Shown here: positions 42,139-61,444 of the stretch, one piece after another
Layout of the letters: each line of letters begins with the position of its first letter
How positions within the stretch are numbered: the first letter of the stretch is position 1
Assembly (NCBI GenBank): GCA_043778225.1
Contig: JAYWGM010000072.1
Coordinates: forward strand, 1-64,000
Length of the DNA stretch: 64,000 bases
Reading direction: 5' to 3'
From: Deinococcales bacterium
GTDB taxonomy: Bacteria; Deinococcota; Deinococci; Deinococcales; JAAFIG01
The notes under the pieces: generated by a model
Told to the model about the DNA's origin: nothing
The model's input: only the letters and a program-made list of their open reading frames with translations
Databases searched by the model: none
Program-made: the position numbers and the translations under genes

Positions 42139-45100
42139 TTACTTTTCAATCAAGAAATCTTGCCAGCGCTCAGGGATAACTTCACCAACTTCAAGTAACT
42201 TGGCTTGAGCTTCGCTGTACAGCCGTTGCAGCGTGCGGTGATTGTTGTCTAAACGCAGGGCATTGCAAGCAATTCTAAGCGTCTCGAGGTCGTATGGATT
42301 GGTCTGGAGTAAAATTCGCATCACTCGAGCCACTTGTTTTGGCTCGGTCTCGAGTCGCCTTTGTGCTTCTTTGTGAGCCGCTGCGATAAGCAGCTCATTA
42401 ATTTCTTCGGATGGAGCGAATCCCTCGAGATACGCCCCACGCCACTTAGCAAAGTCACCAGACTTTAAGAATTCTTCTGCGTCGGTCATGACTGCGCCCA
42501 AAGCATAGCCATTGGCAGTTGTGGCAACCAGCGCCACACCGTGGGCTGCTCGAGCCTTAAAGACGGTTTGACGCAAGGAGACCAGCGCTTCTTCTTCAAG
42601 ACCGTTTGGATAAAGCGCATCTATTAACTCGAGGGTTTTGACTTCGCTGCGTCCTGTCAAGCGAGCCTCGAGCAGCACTGCCAGTAATTCCTTGCGTTTT
42701 TGTCCTTTGACCGCACTGACCAAACCACCATTCAAGATTTGCATTGTGCCAAGTACCTCGAGTTGCAGCTTGGTCTGGTCGAGGCTCGTTTTGGTGGCTT
42801 GTAGTTCAGAAAAGTAACTTTGAGCAAGATTGACCCCATGCAGCAAACCTTGTTCTTGAAACCAAACAACGGCTTCTCGAGCCATATGGATATTTTGTTC
42901 TAAGCGTGCCAATTCAAGGCGGTAGCAATGGGCATCAAATAAAAATCCCAGTTCTTCGGCTCGAGCAATGACAGCTTGCCAAGCAAGGACAGCCGTTTGC
43001 TGTTCGGCTTCTAGTAATCTAGCTTGGGCGCTCAGCACATAAAAACTATGGCTGTCTGGAGCATTTACAAGCACAGGCAAGGCGAGTTCTAAGCATTCAC
43101 GGGCTTGACTGACTTCTTGGGTTTGTAACAAGGCTAGGCATAAATGCGTTTGGCTCGAGGCAATCAATTTATCATGTTCTAGGGCTTGGGCATGACGCAG
43201 CGCATCTCGAGCATATTTTAAGGCTAGAGTCTGACTGTATTGCAATTGGCGTTGCAAATGAAAACGCACCAAGGATAACTCGACAGCCACCAAAAATGGT
43301 GTTTGAGAACCTTGACTTAAAGCCGAATAGGCGGCATTCAAACGCTCCTCGGCGGGTTCATAGCGCCCAGCTTCAAAATCATTGTTCGAGAGCATCAATT
43401 GAGCTTGGGCTGCCAGCCCAAAATTACCAGCTTTCTCGAGGGCGACCAAAGCACGAGTCGCATGGTCACGCATCAAATCTCGCTGCCCGGTGCGCTCTAA
43501 AGTCACTGCCCGATTAAAAAGCATTGCACCCACCGCGTTGTGCTGCTCGAGTTCTTGGGCTAAAGCAATCGCTTCAAGCGCCACGATTTCGGATGCCTCG
43601 AGTTGCCCAAGTTGGGCTAAACTAATCGCTCGGATATTCAAAACACTCATCCGTTCACGCGGCAAAAGTTGAGGGTGCTGCAAAATATCCAAAGACAAGT
43701 GTTCAGCTTTTTGCATCTCACCTGTCAAAACCAGCGCCGATAACACATGAATCAGCACGGCAGTCTCGACCACATCATGCAGTTCAGCATGAGCCTCCCA
43801 AAGCTCAAGCGCTCGAGTTGGCTGACCACACATCATCAAAAACCCAAGATAAGAACTGATGTACCGTGTATCGTTTTGGTACACCACAGGTAAACGCGCT
43901 AAAGAATTCTCGGCTGCCACAATGCTGCGGGTGGTGGTGACAATCGCGCCAGTTGCGTAATAAATCGCCTCTATTCGAGTTGCATCTGGTAAGTCTGGCA
44001 TCTCGAGAATGGACTCGGCATAACTGAGCGCTTCTTTGGGTTGGCTGTGAACCAAAATACCGATTGCCTCGAGTAACAAATTGGCTTTGGCAAGACCGAC
44101 TAAAAACTGTGCAGCTTTGGCTTTGAGTTGGGCGGCTCGAGTTGGTTGGGCTTCTAAGGCTTTTGCACACGACAACAAAACATCCAAAGCCGTTTGGGGG
44201 GGTAACTGGCTATCAAGCAGAAATTCAGTTGCCAATTCTGGATGAGCAACCTGTAAAATCTGCAAGGCTCGAGTTGCTAAGTCTGCCCGCCCAGCACTTG
44301 ATAATTGCTTAAAAGTCACTTCCCGAAAAAGCGGATGCACAAAACCACTTTGGCTTAGAATCCCACGCCGCCGCAAATGCAGTTCGGCAAATTCAAGTTC
44401 TGGTAAATCCAAACCCGCCACTTGCGCCCAGAGGTTAGAATCCAGCATCAATTGCGGCACGCGAATCTCGAGCAAGGCACGGGCTTGCAATGCCAAACGG
44501 CTTGAAAGCGAATCTGACGGGTCAAACAGCAATTGTTCAATCAATGCCTCAACAGTCATCGGCATCGCATCGGCTGGAGGTTCACGCCAATGCCAGCGCT
44601 TGGTGTCGTTCCACAGTAAACCCTGCCTTGCCAAGTGCCTAAAGAATTCCAAAGTAAAAAGCGGATTGCCTGCCGCCCTCGAGTAAATCCAAGTGCTGGC
44701 ATCAGGAGGCAACGCCGCACCGACTTCAGATTCCAAAAGTGTTGTGCTGCTCAGTAAATCCAAAGGCAGTAAGCGCCAAGACTCGAGTCCAGATTCTATC
44801 GCTACGCGACTGGTCAGAATCACCCCAACTCCCTTTTTGTGCTGAGCCGCCAACGCCAAACGCAACCAAAAATCTTGAGCCGTTGCCGTTGCTTCATGCC
44901 AGTCTTCAATATGAAGCACAAAAGGAGCAAGCGCCTCGAGCAAGCCAAGGAGGGTTTCCAAACTCGAATCTGTGCCCAACTTTGCCTCGAGCCAACTTGG
45001 CAAACGTTTAGGACGCGGCAGGTTCTTCAAAACCTGTGCCACAAGCGTCACGGCTCGAGTCGAATAAAACCCATAAGGCACGTTTTTAAGAAGTTGTGTG

Positions 45101-45225
45101 ACCGCGCTGGTTTTACCAATCCCAGCCTCACCAAATAAGCAAAACGCCAAACCAGAACGACGCACCGCCACACTCGCCAAGCGCCTTTGAATTTGTAGCA
45201 GTAACTCTGCATTGGGAAAGCTCAT
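42139..45225 (-). CDS. AAA ATPase + TPR-like + C-terminal wHTH-BTAD regulator
   Basis: GEAGIGKT, LHIEDWH, GNPLFTLE, LEVLG, WRGAYL. Confidence 0.85.
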   Translation of the reverse strand: MSFPNAELLLQIQRRLASVAVRRSGLAFCLFGEAGIGKTSAVTQLLKNVPYGFYSTRAVTLVAQVLKNLPRPKRLPSWLEAKLGTDSSLETLLGLLEALAPFVLHIEDWHEATATAQDFWLRLALAAQHKKGVGVILTSRVAIESGLESWRLLPLDLLSSTTLLESEVGAALPPDASTWIYSRAAGNPLFTLEFFRHLARQGLLWNDTKRWHWREPPADAMPMTVEALIEQLLFDPSDSLSSRLALQARALLEIRVPQLMLDSNLWAQVAGLDLPELEFAELHLRRRGILSQSGFVHPLFREVTFKQLSSAGRADLATRALQILQVAHPELATEFLLDSQLPPQTALDVLLSCAKALEAQPTRAAQLKAKAAQFLVGLAKANLLLEAIGILVHSQPKEALSYAESILEMPDLPDATRIEAIYYATGAIVTTTRSIVAAENSLARLPVVYQNDTRYISSYLGFLMMCGQPTRALELWEAHAELHDVVETAVLIHVLSALVLTGEMQKAEHLSLDILQHPQLLPRERMSVLNIRAISLAQLGQLEASEIVALEAIALAQELEQHNAVGAMLFNRAVTLERTGQRDLMRDHATRALVALEKAGNFGLAAQAQLMLSNNDFEAGRYEPAEERLNAAYSALSQGSQTPFLVAVELSLVRFHLQRQLQYSQTLALKYARDALRHAQALEHDKLIASSQTHLCLALLQTQEVSQARECLELALPVLVNAPDSHSFYVLSAQARLLEAEQQTAVLAWQAVIARAEELGFLFDAHCYRLELARLEQNIHMAREAVVWFQEQGLLHGVNLAQSYFSELQATKTSLDQTKLQLEVLGTMQILNGGLVSAVKGQKRKELLAVLLEARLTGRSEVKTLELIDALYPNGLEEEALVSLRQTVFKARAAHGVALVATTANGYALGAVMTDAEEFLKSGDFAKWRGAYLEGFAPSEEINELLIAAAHKEAQRRLETEPKQVARVMRILLQTNPYDLETLRIACNALRLDNNHRTLQRLYSEAQAKLLEVGEVIPERWQDFLIEK

Positions 45226-45244
45226 GGAGCAACAGCATACTTGG

Positions 45245-46525
45245 TTAAGGCGTTAAACGGTTTCGGTCTCGAGGAAAAGCCCGAGCATAACGCACATTGC
45301 TAATCTCGAGAATTTTAGCGGTTAAGCGTTCTGCACCAATTGCCAGCCCACCATGTGGTGGCATTCCGTGCTTAAAAACTTCTAAATACGCGCCAAATCC
45401 TTCTGGACTCACCCCACGGTATGCCATGTTCTCGAGCAGCATCTGGTAATCATGAACCCGTTGTCCACCACTGGTGATTTCGATGCCACGAAACAGCAAA
45501 TCAAAACTTTTGGTGGTGTTATCTTCAAAATTTGGGTAGGCATAAAAGGGACGGGCAGTGCGTGGGTATTTGGTCACAAACACAAAATCCGAGTCAAAAT
45601 GCTCTAAAAAATGCCGCGAGATAATCCGTTCGCCTTCGGGGTCAAGGTCTTTACCACCGTTGGTATGACCATATTTCTCGATGCACAAGGCTCGAGCCTC
45701 GGCAAGTGGGATTCGCGGGATTTTAGCTGGGATACTTGGCGCAGGTACACCACACAACTCGAGTTCGGGGCTGCATTCTTGAGCGACTTTCTCGAGCATA
45801 TACGCCAAAACCAGATTTTCCATGTCCATCACATCTTCTTCGGATTCGATAAAACCCATCTCGAGGTCTAGGCTCATGTACTCGTTCAAATGCCGACTGG
45901 TAGCGTGTTCCTCGGCTCGGTAAACACAAGCGGTTTCAAAAACCCGCTCGTAAACCCCAACCATAATTTGCTTATAGACCTGCGGACTTTGTGCCAAATA
46001 GGCGGTTTGTTCAAAATACTGGACTTCAAACAAGCTGCTGCCGCCCTCTGCCCCAGCCGAAACAATTTTCGGGGTAAAAATTTCGGTAAAACCCTGAGCT
46101 ATTAAAGCCTCGCGGAAACCCTGAATTAAGACCGCCTGAATTTTAAGTACCGCCCGTTCTTTTAAGCCACGCAAACTGACATAACGGTAATCAAGCAGCG
46201 TTTCGGGGTTGGCTTTCCATTCTTCTTTCGAGACCTCGACAGGTGCGGGTTCAACCGCCACACTAATCGCTTCAAAACTCGAGACTTGGACCTCGAGACC
46301 CTGCGGCGCTCGAGGATTCGCCACGACCTTACCAAAAACCCTGACACTCGACTCGAGTAGTGGAATATGAATGCCCTTGCCAAGCACACATTGGGCTGTA
46401 CCCGTGCGGTCACGCAGCACCAAAAACTGCACCCCGCCAAGGTCGCGCCGAAAATGCACAAATCCCTCGAGTTTGACATCCATTCCAATACGTTCTTTAA
46501 GTTGATTGGTCAGTGTGCGTTCCAT
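45245..46525 (-). CDS. aspS: Non-discriminating (archaeal-type) aspartate--tRNA(Asp/Asn) ligase
   Basis: 426 aa with no GAD insert; LAQSPQVYKQ, YRAE, EITSGGQR, GMPPHGG, FPRD; NPRAP loop. Confidence 0.92.
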   Translation of the reverse strand: MERTLTNQLKERIGMDVKLEGFVHFRRDLGGVQFLVLRDRTGTAQCVLGKGIHIPLLESSVRVFGKVVANPRAPQGLEVQVSSFEAISVAVEPAPVEVSKEEWKANPETLLDYRYVSLRGLKERAVLKIQAVLIQGFREALIAQGFTEIFTPKIVSAGAEGGSSLFEVQYFEQTAYLAQSPQVYKQIMVGVYERVFETACVYRAEEHATSRHLNEYMSLDLEMGFIESEEDVMDMENLVLAYMLEKVAQECSPELELCGVPAPSIPAKIPRIPLAEARALCIEKYGHTNGGKDLDPEGERIISRHFLEHFDSDFVFVTKYPRTARPFYAYPNFEDNTTKSFDLLFRGIEITSGGQRVHDYQMLLENMAYRGVSPEGFGAYLEVFKHGMPPHGGLAIGAERLTAKILEISNVRYARAFPRDRNRLTP

Positions 46526-46538
46526 AATGCCCCTTATC

Positions 46539-46570
46539 AAGAAAAACCCCACTCGAGTCTCGAGCGGGGC
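46539..46570 (-). terminator. Attenuator terminator upstream of aspS
   Basis: Minus strand gccccgctcg-agact-cgagtggggt then TTTTCTT, just before the RBS. Confidence 0.8.
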
Positions 46571-46596
46571 GTGAAAACAAATCAAAGCCCCAACGA

Positions 46597-46638
46597 CTAA
46601 AAATCGTCGTCGGTGCGATTGTTAAAAATGTGTTTCAT
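46597..46638 (-). CDS. aspS leader peptide MKHIFNNRTDDDF
   Basis: atg aaa cac att ttt aac aat cgc acc gac gac gat ttt tag; 5 of last 8 sense codons Asn/Asp. Confidence 0.8.
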   Translation of the reverse strand: MKHIFNNRTDDDF

Positions 46639-46649
46639 AACCAAGGCGG

Positions 46650-46679
46650 AGTATAAACGCGAACCTCGAGACTCGTCAA
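46650..46679 (-). promoter_or_regulatory. Sigma70-type promoter of aspS leader
   Basis: TTGACG-N18-TATACT. Confidence 0.7.
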
Positions 46680-46729
46680 GAACAAGTGTTTTTTTACATA
46701 GCCCCTCGAGACTTGAGGAAGTGATGGTT

Positions 46730-47149
46730 TTACTTTTTGGCTTTGAATCGGTCTACCCCACCCCATGCTTTAAGTTCGGCTTCTAGGGTGTCTTTGGGGA
46801 TATTTGGCACAGAATCCTTATTGCCTGGTTGCGTCCATGCCACAACCTCGAGGACATCATCATAACCATCACCATCGGAATCTTTTCTGGCTTTAAGGGC
46901 TAAGTAAAGTGCATCTGCAAAGACTTTATTCCCAGCACCATTCCACTCAGCCCGAACATTATCGCCAAAAGCATTCCACGGCGCTCTGCCTGTGGCGTTG
47001 AGATGGCAGTATTGGCAAGTCACTTTTTCGGCTTGTAAACCAAGTTGGGCAATGGCTTGTAAGCGATGGGCTGGTCGGGCGGAGACCAACGGAATGGCGG
47101 TTAATCCAAGAATAGCCAAGGCTGCCACATGAACTGCTTTTAATCTCAT
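46730..47149 (-). CDS. Exported protein with CxxCH heme-binding motif
   Basis: Signal peptide, TCQYCH, DSDGDGYDD. Confidence 0.65.
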   Translation of the reverse strand: MRLKAVHVAALAILGLTAIPLVSARPAHRLQAIAQLGLQAEKVTCQYCHLNATGRAPWNAFGDNVRAEWNGAGNKVFADALYLALKARKDSDGDGYDDVLEVVAWTQPGNKDSVPNIPKDTLEAELKAWGGVDRFKAKK

Positions 47150-47227
47150 AAAAATCCCCTTTTGTGATGAACTACACAATCATCACAAAAGGGGGCGGCA
47201 AGATTTGTATCGCAAAGAACAAATTCT

Positions 47228-47319
47228 CTAACAAACTTCATCCCTGCAAGGCTTAACCAATTTCATCCCTGCAAGGTTTGGCGAACTTCATCCCTGCAAA
47301 GCTTAACGAACTTCATCCC
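47228..47319. repeat. 25-bp tandem array x~4 overlapping stop codon
   Basis: ttcatccc at 47237, 47262, 47287, 47312. Confidence 0.85.
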
Positions 47320-49282
47320 AGAACAAATCTGGCACAGTTGGCACGGCATCGGCTGGCAAATCGGTAAAGATGCCATATTGAATTAAATATGTGCCAGCCA
47401 CCAAGCGCCCCATATTAAAGGTATTGCCCTCGAGCCGCCAATTGACCGCCACAGTTTGGTTGTTGACCAAGCCAGTCACGGCTGGGTTGGGGCGACGCAC
47501 GGCTGGACTCGAGCCACCTTGGGGCAGTGGGTCTATAATCCGTAGGTTCTCGACTGTGCGCTCGACCGTGATTGCCAGCGTCACAATATAGCCTTGGGCA
47601 TCTTGGCTATAACTTTTGATGATTCTGACCGCACCTTTTTGTAAGTCAGTCACTCGAGAAACCGTTACCCCTGCTGGTGGTAGCACCCGAATCATGCCTT
47701 CGGTACTCAATTCAAACGGTTCGAGTGCAGCACGGATTGTGCCAGCCGCACAGACTCTGGCTGGAATTTGCAATGTGGCTGGTTTACCGCCGCTAATGTC
47801 GGTGGTCAGTTCAGTTGGAGCGCCAGTGGTCACTTCCTTGGGTAAGGTCAAATTCAGCATGACTGGCACAGGGTACGGGAAATCAGTGGTGGCAGTGGCG
47901 GTCAGTAAACTCTGTTGGCAAGTTGCCACGATATTGGGCGAAACCTCGAGTTTAAGGCTTGCCGAAATGCGGTACTCGAGAACCACACGAGTAACTTGGT
48001 TATCCTGTACCACACCCGCTTTGGCTTCGACGGTCGAACCGGGCAATGGGGTTGGCGTGACTGGGTATTCGTTTGGGGTCAGAATCAAGGTACTTGGCGA
48101 ACGTAGGTTTTGTCCAGCCGCCCGAAATGGAATGCCGTTAATTGGCACACGGGTTTTGCCAATAATCGCCACGGTTTCGACAATCAGCTGCCCTTGCACC
48201 GGACGCGCCACAAAACGGACTCGAGCCGCGCCCGGTTGGGTACGGGCAAGCACCGACGAAACGACGGTGCCTTGTCCCTCGAGAACGCTGGCACTGACTG
48301 GAATCCAACCTTGGGGCAGGGTTGGCGAGATGGTGTACTCGCCGTCACCAACCAAATTATAACCAGCCCCCAAAATCGGACGACCTTGCGGGTCTACGAC
48401 CTCAACCAATGGCGAGGGCAAAATACTCAAACCTTGCGGAGGAACAAAAGCGGGAATATCGGCATAAGCGGGTTGCTGATTTAAGCGCACTCGCAAGTTG
48501 ATGGCATTGCTAAACTGTTTGGTGCTGGGCAGAATTCGCATCAAAATGCTCCACTCGCCGACCAGTGCATTGGTGATGTCAAAACTGTCGGTGGCTTGTC
48601 CGCCATTTTCGGAGGTGGCAAGTTTACGGCGTTGACCATCGGGCGAAACCGCATACAATTCAGCTTCAGCAGCCCCATCGGCATCGTAATTGGTCAATTC
48701 AAAGCGCTTACCGACCAATTCTCGAGCCACTTGAACTCGAGCCGCCAGTAAATCGGTGTTGACTGTACCTCGAGCATTGACCGTAAACTGACTGGCTTGG
48801 ATTTGATAGGGGCTGTTGGCACGCACCGCAAAAGCATTTTTACCATTGCCGGTGCTGCGAACCCGCAGGGTATAAATGCCAGCTTGAACCCGCAGACTGG
48901 TCAGGGCTTCCCATGTGTGCTTATCGGTTGTGCCGTATTTGCGTTCAAAAAGTTTTGTGCCATTTGGCGATAAAACCGTATAGGTGGTGTCAAATGGCAA
49001 ATTACGCCCGTAGATTTCGTCGCCATAGTAGCCAGTGGTCACCCGACCATTGACATAATCGTTGAGGTTTAAGCCCGGACTATAGACCTCGAGCGCCAGT
49101 GGTGCGTCTGTACCACTTGGCACAATAATTCGCAGTTCTTCGTAGGGAGTTGCCCAACTTTGGTTGCTGACACTGGCAAGCGGCAATGCGCCGCCAGCTT
49201 GTGCCAAAACTGGCGTGCTTAAAAGTGTTGCGCCAAGCAGCAGCGCCAAGCATCTCGAGAAAAGGTTTGGTTTCACAAGCAT
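47303..49282 (-). CDS. Hypothetical secreted beta-rich protein
   Basis: Signal peptide ending VLA; 659-aa ORF. Confidence 0.75.
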   Translation of the reverse strand: MLVKPNLFSRCLALLLGATLLSTPVLAQAGGALPLASVSNQSWATPYEELRIIVPSGTDAPLALEVYSPGLNLNDYVNGRVTTGYYGDEIYGRNLPFDTTYTVLSPNGTKLFERKYGTTDKHTWEALTSLRVQAGIYTLRVRSTGNGKNAFAVRANSPYQIQASQFTVNARGTVNTDLLAARVQVARELVGKRFELTNYDADGAAEAELYAVSPDGQRRKLATSENGGQATDSFDITNALVGEWSILMRILPSTKQFSNAINLRVRLNQQPAYADIPAFVPPQGLSILPSPLVEVVDPQGRPILGAGYNLVGDGEYTISPTLPQGWIPVSASVLEGQGTVVSSVLARTQPGAARVRFVARPVQGQLIVETVAIIGKTRVPINGIPFRAAGQNLRSPSTLILTPNEYPVTPTPLPGSTVEAKAGVVQDNQVTRVVLEYRISASLKLEVSPNIVATCQQSLLTATATTDFPYPVPVMLNLTLPKEVTTGAPTELTTDISGGKPATLQIPARVCAAGTIRAALEPFELSTEGMIRVLPPAGVTVSRVTDLQKGAVRIIKSYSQDAQGYIVTLAITVERTVENLRIIDPLPQGGSSPAVRRPNPAVTGLVNNQTVAVNWRLEGNTFNMGRLVAGTYLIQYGIFTDLPADAVPTVPDLFWDEVR

Positions 49283-61201: not shown

Positions 61202-61233
61202 AAAAAGACCCTGTTAAACACAGGGTCTTTTTT
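61202..61233 (-). terminator. Intrinsic terminator of tRNA operon
   Basis: aaaaagaccctgt-taaac-acagggtcttttt. Confidence 0.85.
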
Positions 61234-61308
61234 GGTGGCGAGAGCCGGGCATGATCCGGCGACACTACGATTTTCAGTCGTATGCTCTACCAGCTGAGCT
61301 ACCCCGCC
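61233..61308 (-). tRNA. tRNA-Phe(GAA) with atypical T-loop
   Basis: 76-nt cloverleaf, anticodon loop CTGAAAA, encoded CCA; T-loop ATCATGC. Confidence 0.9.
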
Positions 61309-61368
61309 GTGGTAAAGCCTTGCAAATAACCGTTTGAAAAATCGCCCGAGCGAACCCGGGCTTTTTCG

Positions 61369-61444
61369 TGGCGGACCGGACGGGATTTGAACCCGCGACC
61401 ACCCGCGTGACAGGCGGGTATGCTAACCGCTGCACCACCAGTCC
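61369..61444 (-). tRNA. tRNA-Asp(GTC)
   Basis: 76-nt cloverleaf, loop CTGTCAC, GGTTCAAATCC, encoded CCA. Confidence 0.95.

Follow-up and report, generated by a model that had tools for sequence, protein, structure and literature searches.

We examined the region upstream of aspS2, the gene of an archaeal-type aspartyl-tRNA synthetase (AspRS2), in a 64,000-nucleotide (nt) stretch of a Deinococcales bacterium genome (contig JAYWGM010000072.1, positions 1 to 64,000; hereafter the window). The gene is preceded by a promoter, a 13-codon open reading frame (ORF) with asparagine and aspartate codons, a G-run and an intrinsic terminator. We consider it likely that these elements make up a ribosome-mediated transcription attenuator of the classical type, borne on a transcript that is leaderless or close to it. 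The comparison with related genomes gives good support to an attenuator that would sense tRNA-Asn and, probably, tRNA-Asp too, and this switch would probably turn aspS2 on when charged tRNA runs short. The layout is more than a chance arrangement, mainly because it was conserved at all 35 loci that could be read in relatives. Experimental support comes from a relative, Deinococcus deserti, and consists only of a transcription start site (TSS) and read counts in the tables of de Groot et al. 2014 (PMC4007540).

Architecture of the aspS2 leader

All the elements described here lie on the minus strand. The leader begins with a sigma-70-type promoter, TTGACG-N18-TATACT (46650..46679; -35 box at 46679-46674 and -10 box at 46655-46650), which matches the consensus at 10 out of 12 positions and was the sole promoter-like site in a promoter scan of positions 45000-47500. 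The leader ATG (46638) follows 11 nt past the end of the -10 box, and those 11 nt hold no Shine-Dalgarno (SD) sequence; thus, the leader transcript would be leaderless or nearly so. The ORF (46597..46638, with TAG at 46599-46597) reads ATG AAA CAC ATT TTT AAC AAT CGC ACC GAC GAC GAT TTT TAG and encodes MKHIFNNRTDDDF. Two of its 13 sense codons specify Asn (AAC AAT, 46623-46618) and three specify Asp (GAC GAC GAT, 46611-46603).

The leader stop codon is followed by TCGTT, then by GGGGC and then by a 16-nt U-rich spacer. The Asp codons make the 5' arm of a first hairpin (hairpin 1:2, CCGACGAC/GUCGUUGG; 46590..46613), whose loop holds the stop codon. GGGGC (segment 2; 46587..46591, that is +8 to +12 counted from the first base of the stop) is the 5' half of the predicted antiterminator. 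Its partner GCCCC (segment 3; 46566..46570) is common to the antiterminator and to the 5' arm of the terminator, and 5-6 bases of this arm were paired in the stall folds described below. The intrinsic terminator (46542..46570) has the RNA sequence GCCCCGCUCGAG-ACU-CUCGAGUGGGGU followed by U5 (in DNA, GCCCCGCTCGAG-ACT-CTCGAGTGGGGT followed by TTTTT). Its stem (46570-46546) comprises 11 pairs, 7 of them G-C, with the T-run at 46546-46542 and an energy of -19.2 kcal/mol. The distance from the leader start codon to the U-tract is about 95 nt, and the U-tract ends 16 nt before the aspS2 start; the SD of the gene, AAGGGG, was read directly from the sequence at 46530..46535.

The 120-nt leader RNA, in a fold that includes both hairpin CCGACGAC/GUCGUUGG and the terminator, reached -40.1 kcal/mol, compared with -26.9 +/- 3.4 kcal/mol for 200 dinucleotide shuffles (z = -3.93), none of which folded as well. 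An initial annotation, made by reading the sequence, had proposed this promoter, this leader with its Asn and Asp codons, a pairing of CGACGA over the Asp codons with TCGTTG, a GGGGC able to pair with the GCCCC arm of the terminator and a terminator with U-tract just before the ribosome-binding site of aspS. All of these elements were recovered at the positions given above, the CGACGA/TCGTTG pairing corresponding to hairpin 1:2.

The terminator stem contains two copies of the palindrome CTCGAG (46551-46563). This palindrome is very frequent in the window (410 copies, 8.2 expected) and in the genome as a whole (24,877 copies in 4.03 Mb, or 6.2 per kb), at about 9 times the count of the next commonest 6-base palindrome.

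Conservation across Deinococcales

We searched 41 genomes for aspS2 (the source genome, 7 of the same genus, 11 more of the same family and 22 from four other families) and detected the gene in 39 of them, with no match in G008 and G011. Upstream DNA was readable at 35 loci (an initial 30 and 5 more) that span five Deinococcales families; one locus with the gene 20 nt from a contig end (G023) and three partial genes (G001, G004 and G016) were left out. The alignment of upstream regions in relatives, suggested in the initial annotation, returned the same layout at 35 out of 35 loci: a -10 box, an ATG or GTG 6-11 nt further on that opens a short ORF (6-32 sense codons, stop excluded), a G-run and a GC hairpin. 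The leader stop lies within a few bases of the G-run, or just past one, and the 5' arm of the hairpin opens with a C-run. The ORF, its Asn/Asp codons, the position of the stop beside the G-run and the C-run/G-run terminator are thus kept in all five families, while the remaining sequence diverges.

At least one Asn codon was present in 35 out of 35 leaders and at least one Asp codon in 33 of them, and 34 leaders contained at least two codons of either kind. In the 26 distinct leaders of the first 30 loci, Asn and Asp together accounted for 132 of 344 residues (38%), compared with 6.9% in 80 other small ORFs from the same regions. Both synonymous codons were used for each amino acid (AAC 42, AAT 29, GAC 34, GAT 27), and Asn and Asp were exchanged at the same position between close relatives (AAC AAT versus GAT AAT). 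These swaps, together with the use of both synonymous codons, point to selection on codon identity: the swaps retain the property of being Asn or Asp, which an RNA motif would not require.

The leader peptides include MKCFFDNSSDDS and MKCFFNNSADDDN in the same genus as the source genome, MVTVLNRNNRNDDDN and MFARPNDPNRPDLGNTDDN elsewhere in the same family, and MKRAPLLNNDDRCIGA in family f2. Those of family f3, MFAAHNNVNDDPC and MFVAPTNNSDNDPR, closely resemble the D. deserti peptide. Family f4 has MRGLLNNDR, and family f5 has MGPLIGNNAG, MRLPQGNDA and MLRADDNL.

Six loci from three other genera of the same family (L011 and L013-L017) carry a second module between the first terminator and aspS2, which is absent in the window. 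This module consists of an SD (GGAGG) and an ORF of 20-24 codons ending in ..RD or ..PD (e.g. MIVSRAIKSEFRRIPFLGLLPD), with its TGA 1-2 nt before a second GC hairpin (GCCCCGTGAG...) that has a U-tract. A ribosome on the second stop would cover the 5' arm of that hairpin, so translation of the second ORF may suppress the second terminator.

Terminator, predicted antiterminator and ribosome position

The terminator hairpin was present at 35 out of 35 loci, and a run of at least four T followed it at 30 of them. We counted 23 distinct terminator hairpins in 30 loci, in which the outer C-run and G-run were constant and the inner stems changed in a compensatory way (GCTC/GAGC, GGAC/GTCC, GCAC/GTGC, CGAC/GTCG, GAGG/CCTC, GGTTC/GAACC and GATAC/GTATC). 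RNAalifold of 13 sequences of the window's family returned exactly two helices, the Asp-codon hairpin and the terminator, with 3 out of 14 pairs changing on both sides; one of these compensatory pairs belongs to hairpin 1:2. The GGGGC:GCCCC pairing is complementary in 92% of the cells of the family alignment and invariant. At L066 and at three loci of genus g9 in family f5 (L028, L029 and L034), the hairpin is very strong (-28 to -32 kcal/mol in g9) and lacks a U-tract.

The ribosome footprint reaches about 12 nt past the A-site codon, and GGGGC, at +8 to +12, therefore falls inside the footprint of a ribosome bound at the stop. To model ribosome position, we folded the RNA that precedes the 3' arm of the terminator, masked to 12 nt past the A-site codon. 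In the window, the fold between GGGGC and the terminator arm reached -17.2 kcal/mol with the ribosome placed at the first Asn codon and -11.5 kcal/mol with it at the last Asp codon, while a ribosome on UAG covered GGGGC exactly and the residual fold was -0.8 kcal/mol. Across 30 loci, the median folds were -15.9 kcal/mol (first Asn/Asp codon), -7.8 kcal/mol (last Asn/Asp codon) and -2.25 kcal/mol (stop). At least four arm bases were paired upstream at 23 out of 30 loci with the ribosome on the first Asn/Asp codon, and at the same number with the ribosome on the last one.

We infer that, in this organism, the leader is translated, the ribosome stalls on it and read-through into aspS2 is regulated accordingly. 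RNA polymerase would start a few bases upstream of the AUG, and the 13-codon leader would then be read by a ribosome. With Asn-tRNA(Asn) and Asp-tRNA(Asp) plentiful, the ribosome would reach UAG and its footprint would cover GGGGC; with GGGGC masked, GCCCC would pair downstream, the terminator would form, and transcription would end at the U-tract, 16 nt before the gene. A ribosome stalled 21-24 nt ahead of the stop, at an Asn codon, or 6-12 nt ahead of it, at an Asp codon, would leave GGGGC free to pair with GCCCC, the terminator would be blocked and aspS2 would be transcribed. AspRS2 would then make Asp-tRNA(Asn), which GatCAB would convert to Asn-tRNA(Asn), and it would also make Asp-tRNA(Asp). 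The switch would thus feed back on both products. Two G are all that hairpin 1:2 has in common with the antiterminator, and the truncated fold of the window can accommodate both structures; with an overlap of 2 nt, hairpin 1:2 is not a full anti-antiterminator and is probably a pause or coupling hairpin.

Specificity within the genome

We found no such leader ORF upstream of asnS, aspS1 or gatB in the same genome. A loose genome scan, which required a small ORF with at least four Asn/Asp in 8 codons and a terminator after it, gave 4 matches, and the aspS2 leader alone was compact and beside a strong terminator. A strict scan, for a -35 box, a -10 box, a short ORF and a terminator, gave 9 matches, and 6 of them paired a leader with its cognate gene. 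One of the six is the Asn/Asp leader of aspS2. The other five are MKTVFVIVVVVTLTRGVAA (VIVVVV) before ilvB, an acetolactate synthase gene; VNFTNTTTTI (TNTTTT) before asd; MKITSWYTI (W and Y) before a DAHP synthase/chorismate mutase gene; MEVTLSLFTSFA (F) before pheS; and MIRSGLLLAGALLD (LLL) before leuS. The lineage is thus, as read from its genome, one that uses leader-peptide attenuation as a device, and its set of leaders mirrors the list of attenuation leaders tabulated for D. deserti (PMC4007540).

Two further matches of the strict scan were rejected as false, one at dnaK and one a tRNA-Leu gene translated as 'VPWWRNW'. In the one remaining match, a Leu-rich leader, MKFSAKLLLALNPSRVAA, precedes a 115-residue ORF with no family match. 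The attenuator candidates other than that of aspS2, this Leu-rich one included, are on near-leaderless transcripts and lie on contigs C28, C52, C56, C91 (two sites) and C16.

The aspS2 gene and asparagine synthesis

The aspS2 gene (45245..46525 on the minus strand, ATG at 46525) encodes 426 amino acids and had been named in the initial annotation as a non-discriminating AspRS. Its profile and structure matches bear this out: NF003483 (aspartate--tRNA(Asn) ligase) scored 552.6 bits against a cut-off of 353, and TIGR00458 scored 392 against 368.4. Pfam detected tRNA-synt_2 and the anticodon OB fold only, with no GAD domain. The closest solved relative, over the full length, was 1n9w/3kfu ('Non-discriminating and archaeal-type aspartyl-tRNA synthetase', E 2e-168). 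By sequence, the product is orthologous to AspRS2 of Thermus, an archaeal-type enzyme whose non-discriminating character has been defined biochemically, and we infer that it charges tRNA-Asn besides tRNA-Asp.

The source assembly (4.03 Mb, 89% complete) also encodes a bacterial AspRS (584 amino acids, 798 bits), an AsnRS (457 bits, cut-off 342.6) and GatB. The assembly, at this completeness of 89%, yielded neither AsnA nor any other asparagine synthetase. The sole AsnB-like protein was rejected as an asparagine synthetase (176 against a cut-off of 267) and fits a lasso-peptide cyclase better (401 bits). The same set of Asn-related genes is described for D. radiodurans and T. thermophilus, in which an extra archaeal AspRS and GatCAB make Asn on tRNA (PMC4206432). 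The source genome therefore looks dependent on tRNA-bound Asn synthesis, and the AspRS2-GatCAB route appears to be the only asparagine source of the organism.

A 1028-residue ORF (42139-45225, minus strand) begins 19 nt past aspS2, with which it may share a transcript; its AAA_16 and TPR matches are weak and below cut-off, and it has no NCBIfam family. Genes for tRNA-Phe(GAA) and tRNA-Asp(GUC) adjoin each other elsewhere in the window (61233-61444, minus strand).

Prior description in Deinococcus deserti

The element is not new: it is an ortholog of a leader listed in 2014 and would work like classical attenuators. The remark in the initial annotation that no such attenuator had been described for aspS did not hold, as de Groot et al. 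2014 (Genome Biol Evol 6:932; PMC4007540), who mapped transcription starts in D. deserti, include the ortholog in their Table S9 among 14 putative attenuation leaders. According to these tables, the leader Deide_10019 (MFAALANNNDNDPH, 14 amino acids) begins 133 nt and ends 88 nt ahead of the start codon of a 429-residue non-discriminating AspRS gene, and its TSS is the A of its own ATG (Table S10). For the untreated library, Table S2 counts 117 reads over the leader (45 nt) and 118 over Deide_10020 (1290 nt); for the TEX library, the counts are 724 and 36, respectively. This drop from leader to gene is as expected from termination, and the 5' bias of the libraries may contribute to it.

The entry in PMC4007540 is a table row, which as such gives no structure, Asn/Asp logic, conservation survey or test for the leader. 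A search of full-text literature returned no other description or published test of this leader beyond de Groot et al. 2014. Leader genes or a 'tRNA synthetase leader' of Shewanella aspS are mentioned in PMC4833913 and PMC2659441, and the passages concerned do not describe this element. The Deinococcus loci of our set carry the near-identical peptides MFAAHNNVNDDPC and MSAAQANLNNDPH. D. radiodurans and T. thermophilus, like D. deserti, have the orthologous leader. The version in the window differs from that of D. deserti in belonging to another Deinococcales family and in having its own peptide, its GACGAC hairpin and its terminator with two CTCGAG copies.

Alternative explanations

The interpretation as an attenuator, proposed in the initial annotation, fits all the comparative evidence. 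Several observations nevertheless count against it. The single promoter match in 45000-47500 does not exceed the shuffle mean of 2.1, and a consensus match alone proves nothing. The 11-nt gap suggests a 5' untranslated region of 3-4 nt, so that the transcript would not be strictly leaderless, and with no SD and such a probable short 5' untranslated region, the translation of the leader is assumed. Four loci lack a U-tract (L028, L029, L034 and L066) and a fifth (L020) has TTCTT; at the former four, termination may differ or the hairpin may act in another way. The antiterminator is short, with 5-6 pairs, and its -11.5 kcal/mol at the last Asp codon has to compete with the -19.2 kcal/mol of the terminator. 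It has no covariation support because its pairs never vary. Compared with spacers shuffled by mononucleotide, the window antiterminator has a z of -2.4, with 2% of the shuffles as good, and over 30 loci the median z is -1.3, several Deinococcus loci being no better than chance. A stop-bound ribosome still leaves at least four arm bases paired at 10 out of 30 loci, with weak energies. One leader, MLWLANC (L062), has a single Asn codon only. Finally, the D. deserti read counts are possibly biased towards 5' ends, and a second TSS tabulated there at -93, inside the leader, was assigned to a GATAAT formed by Asp-Asn codons (PMC4007540).

An asparagine-only sensor survives best among the alternatives, and we regard it as rather unlikely. 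Its signal would be the stalling at Asn codons, and the Asp codons would have been retained either because they build the 5' arm of the pause hairpin in the window's family or because they lie close to Asn codons in sequence space. Asn codons occur in every leader, while Asp codons are missing in two of the 35 (MGPLIGNNAG at L028 and MLWLANC); in the window's family, GACGAC is the 5' arm of hairpin 1:2; and the need that the physiology points to, for synthesis on tRNA, is one for Asn (PMC4206432). However, Asp codons persist where no hairpin includes them, for example in the GAT GAT of Deinococcus leaders before CCC-NNN-TAG and in MRGLLNNDR, and by the geometry of the window GGGGC also stays free whichever of the three Asp codons the ribosome stalls on. 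A further argument comes from outside the order. An unplaced 'bacterium' (L045) has an archaeal-type aspS, 44% identical, that is preceded by an SD and MDDNDDDLGSQRS. Among 31 genomes around it, 6 hold the gene, and 4 further upstream regions carry MDDNDDDVRRRLL, MDNDDDDDVRRRR, MGSDDDDDDDEGSPRVT and MDNGDDDDDKTGRP. The leaders of this unrelated clade (L045 and L057-L060, with genomes of 5-12 Mb) are SD-led and dominated by Asp (e.g. MDDNDDD, MDNDDDDD, MGSDDDDDDDE and MDNGDDDDD), and this dominance speaks for a sensing role of the Asp codons themselves. Sensing of both Asn and Asp is plausible. At L045, the RNA past the leader looks, by eye, able to pair with the ribosome-binding site of aspS, and control there may act on translation.

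It is improbable, to our judgement, that charged tRNA is not sensed at all. The ORF would then be untranslated, or constitutively translated for ribosome loading or RNA protection, the terminator would be a fixed dampener or controlled by another factor, and the Asn/Asp codons would partly serve as an internal -10 box, GATAAT. This explanation draws on the second TSS of D. deserti, on the GATAAT that ends several leaders of the family (L009, L010, L012 and L014-L016), on the leader without SD and on the weak antiterminator statistics. Nonetheless, the window's own leader has no GATAAT, and codons ending in C outnumber those ending in T, the opposite of what a -10 box needs; for this reason, we rejected the internal -10 box as the main cause of the Asn/Asp enrichment. 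The frame, start and stop are also kept at all 35 loci despite very different sequences, and the same genome has cognate leaders before ilvB, asd, the aroG-type gene, pheS and leuS.

In Firmicutes, aspS and asnS are under the control of T-boxes, which likewise finish with a terminator/antiterminator pair and are roughly 200 nt or more in length. Here, however, a T-box can be set aside almost completely, and so can any other RNA to which uncharged tRNA or a metabolite would bind directly: no Rfam family, T-box included, reached threshold in 45500-47500 at E up to 10 (the sole overlap, NsiR1, is at chance level with 16.4 bits against a gathering score of 39), the distance from start codon to U-tract is too short, and conservation tracks codons and reading frame, not RNA motifs.

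Relation to known attenuators

The E. coli pheST attenuator uses the pheM leader peptide, and the trp, his, leu, thr and ilv leaders are the classical cases of the same device. The predicted aspS2 attenuator resembles them in its short ORF with cognate codons, in its terminator with a predicted alternative antiterminator and in the position of the ribosome as the proposed deciding factor, and pheST is a precedent for such a device serving a tRNA synthetase gene. It differs from them in three respects: its codons are of two kinds, one for each tRNA that the enzyme would charge; its start is leaderless, whereas theirs are SD-led; and its arrangement is less elaborate, in that the ribosome would mask the antiterminator from the stop codon itself, while hairpin 1:2 overlaps the antiterminator by only 2 nt. 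The T-boxes of Firmicutes aspS and asnS serve the same purpose, in that the synthetase is raised on uncharged tRNA through a block of the terminator. Unlike them, the aspS2 leader has no tRNA-binding RNA and no Rfam match, and sensing would pass through the translating ribosome. Trp attenuation is summarised in PMC4007540. In mycobacteria, leaderless poly-Cys short ORFs are described as cysteine-responsive attenuators (bioRxiv 10.1101/834739). As presented there, they are also leaderless, enriched in one amino acid and in control of downstream genes; they differ from the aspS2 leader in phylum, amino acid and target genes.

Significance

The aspS2 leader leaves the understanding of attenuation itself unchanged, and it cleanly illustrates a leader peptide on a leaderless transcript and a putative attenuator that combines sensing codons for two amino acids. 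Asparagine synthesis on tRNA is a textbook oddity of Deinococcus and Thermus, and on the regulation of its entry enzyme we found no literature beyond the one row of a supplementary table from 2014. To this row, our comparison adds that the leader is kept in the five families sampled and that aspS2 alone carries it, not asnS, aspS1 or gatB. Conservation and specificity together give a concrete geometry that can be tested.

A wider reading, which we hold tentatively and at somewhat less than even odds, is that of a true two-input sensor of tRNA-Asn and tRNA-Asp charging. Such a sensor would be the sole regulatory gate on Asn supply in organisms that make Asn only on tRNA, would be ancient and would travel with the archaeal-type aspS between phyla. 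It is supported because an unrelated clade carries the Asp-dominated versions, and the ratio of Asn to Asp codons may be tuned to the needs of each host.

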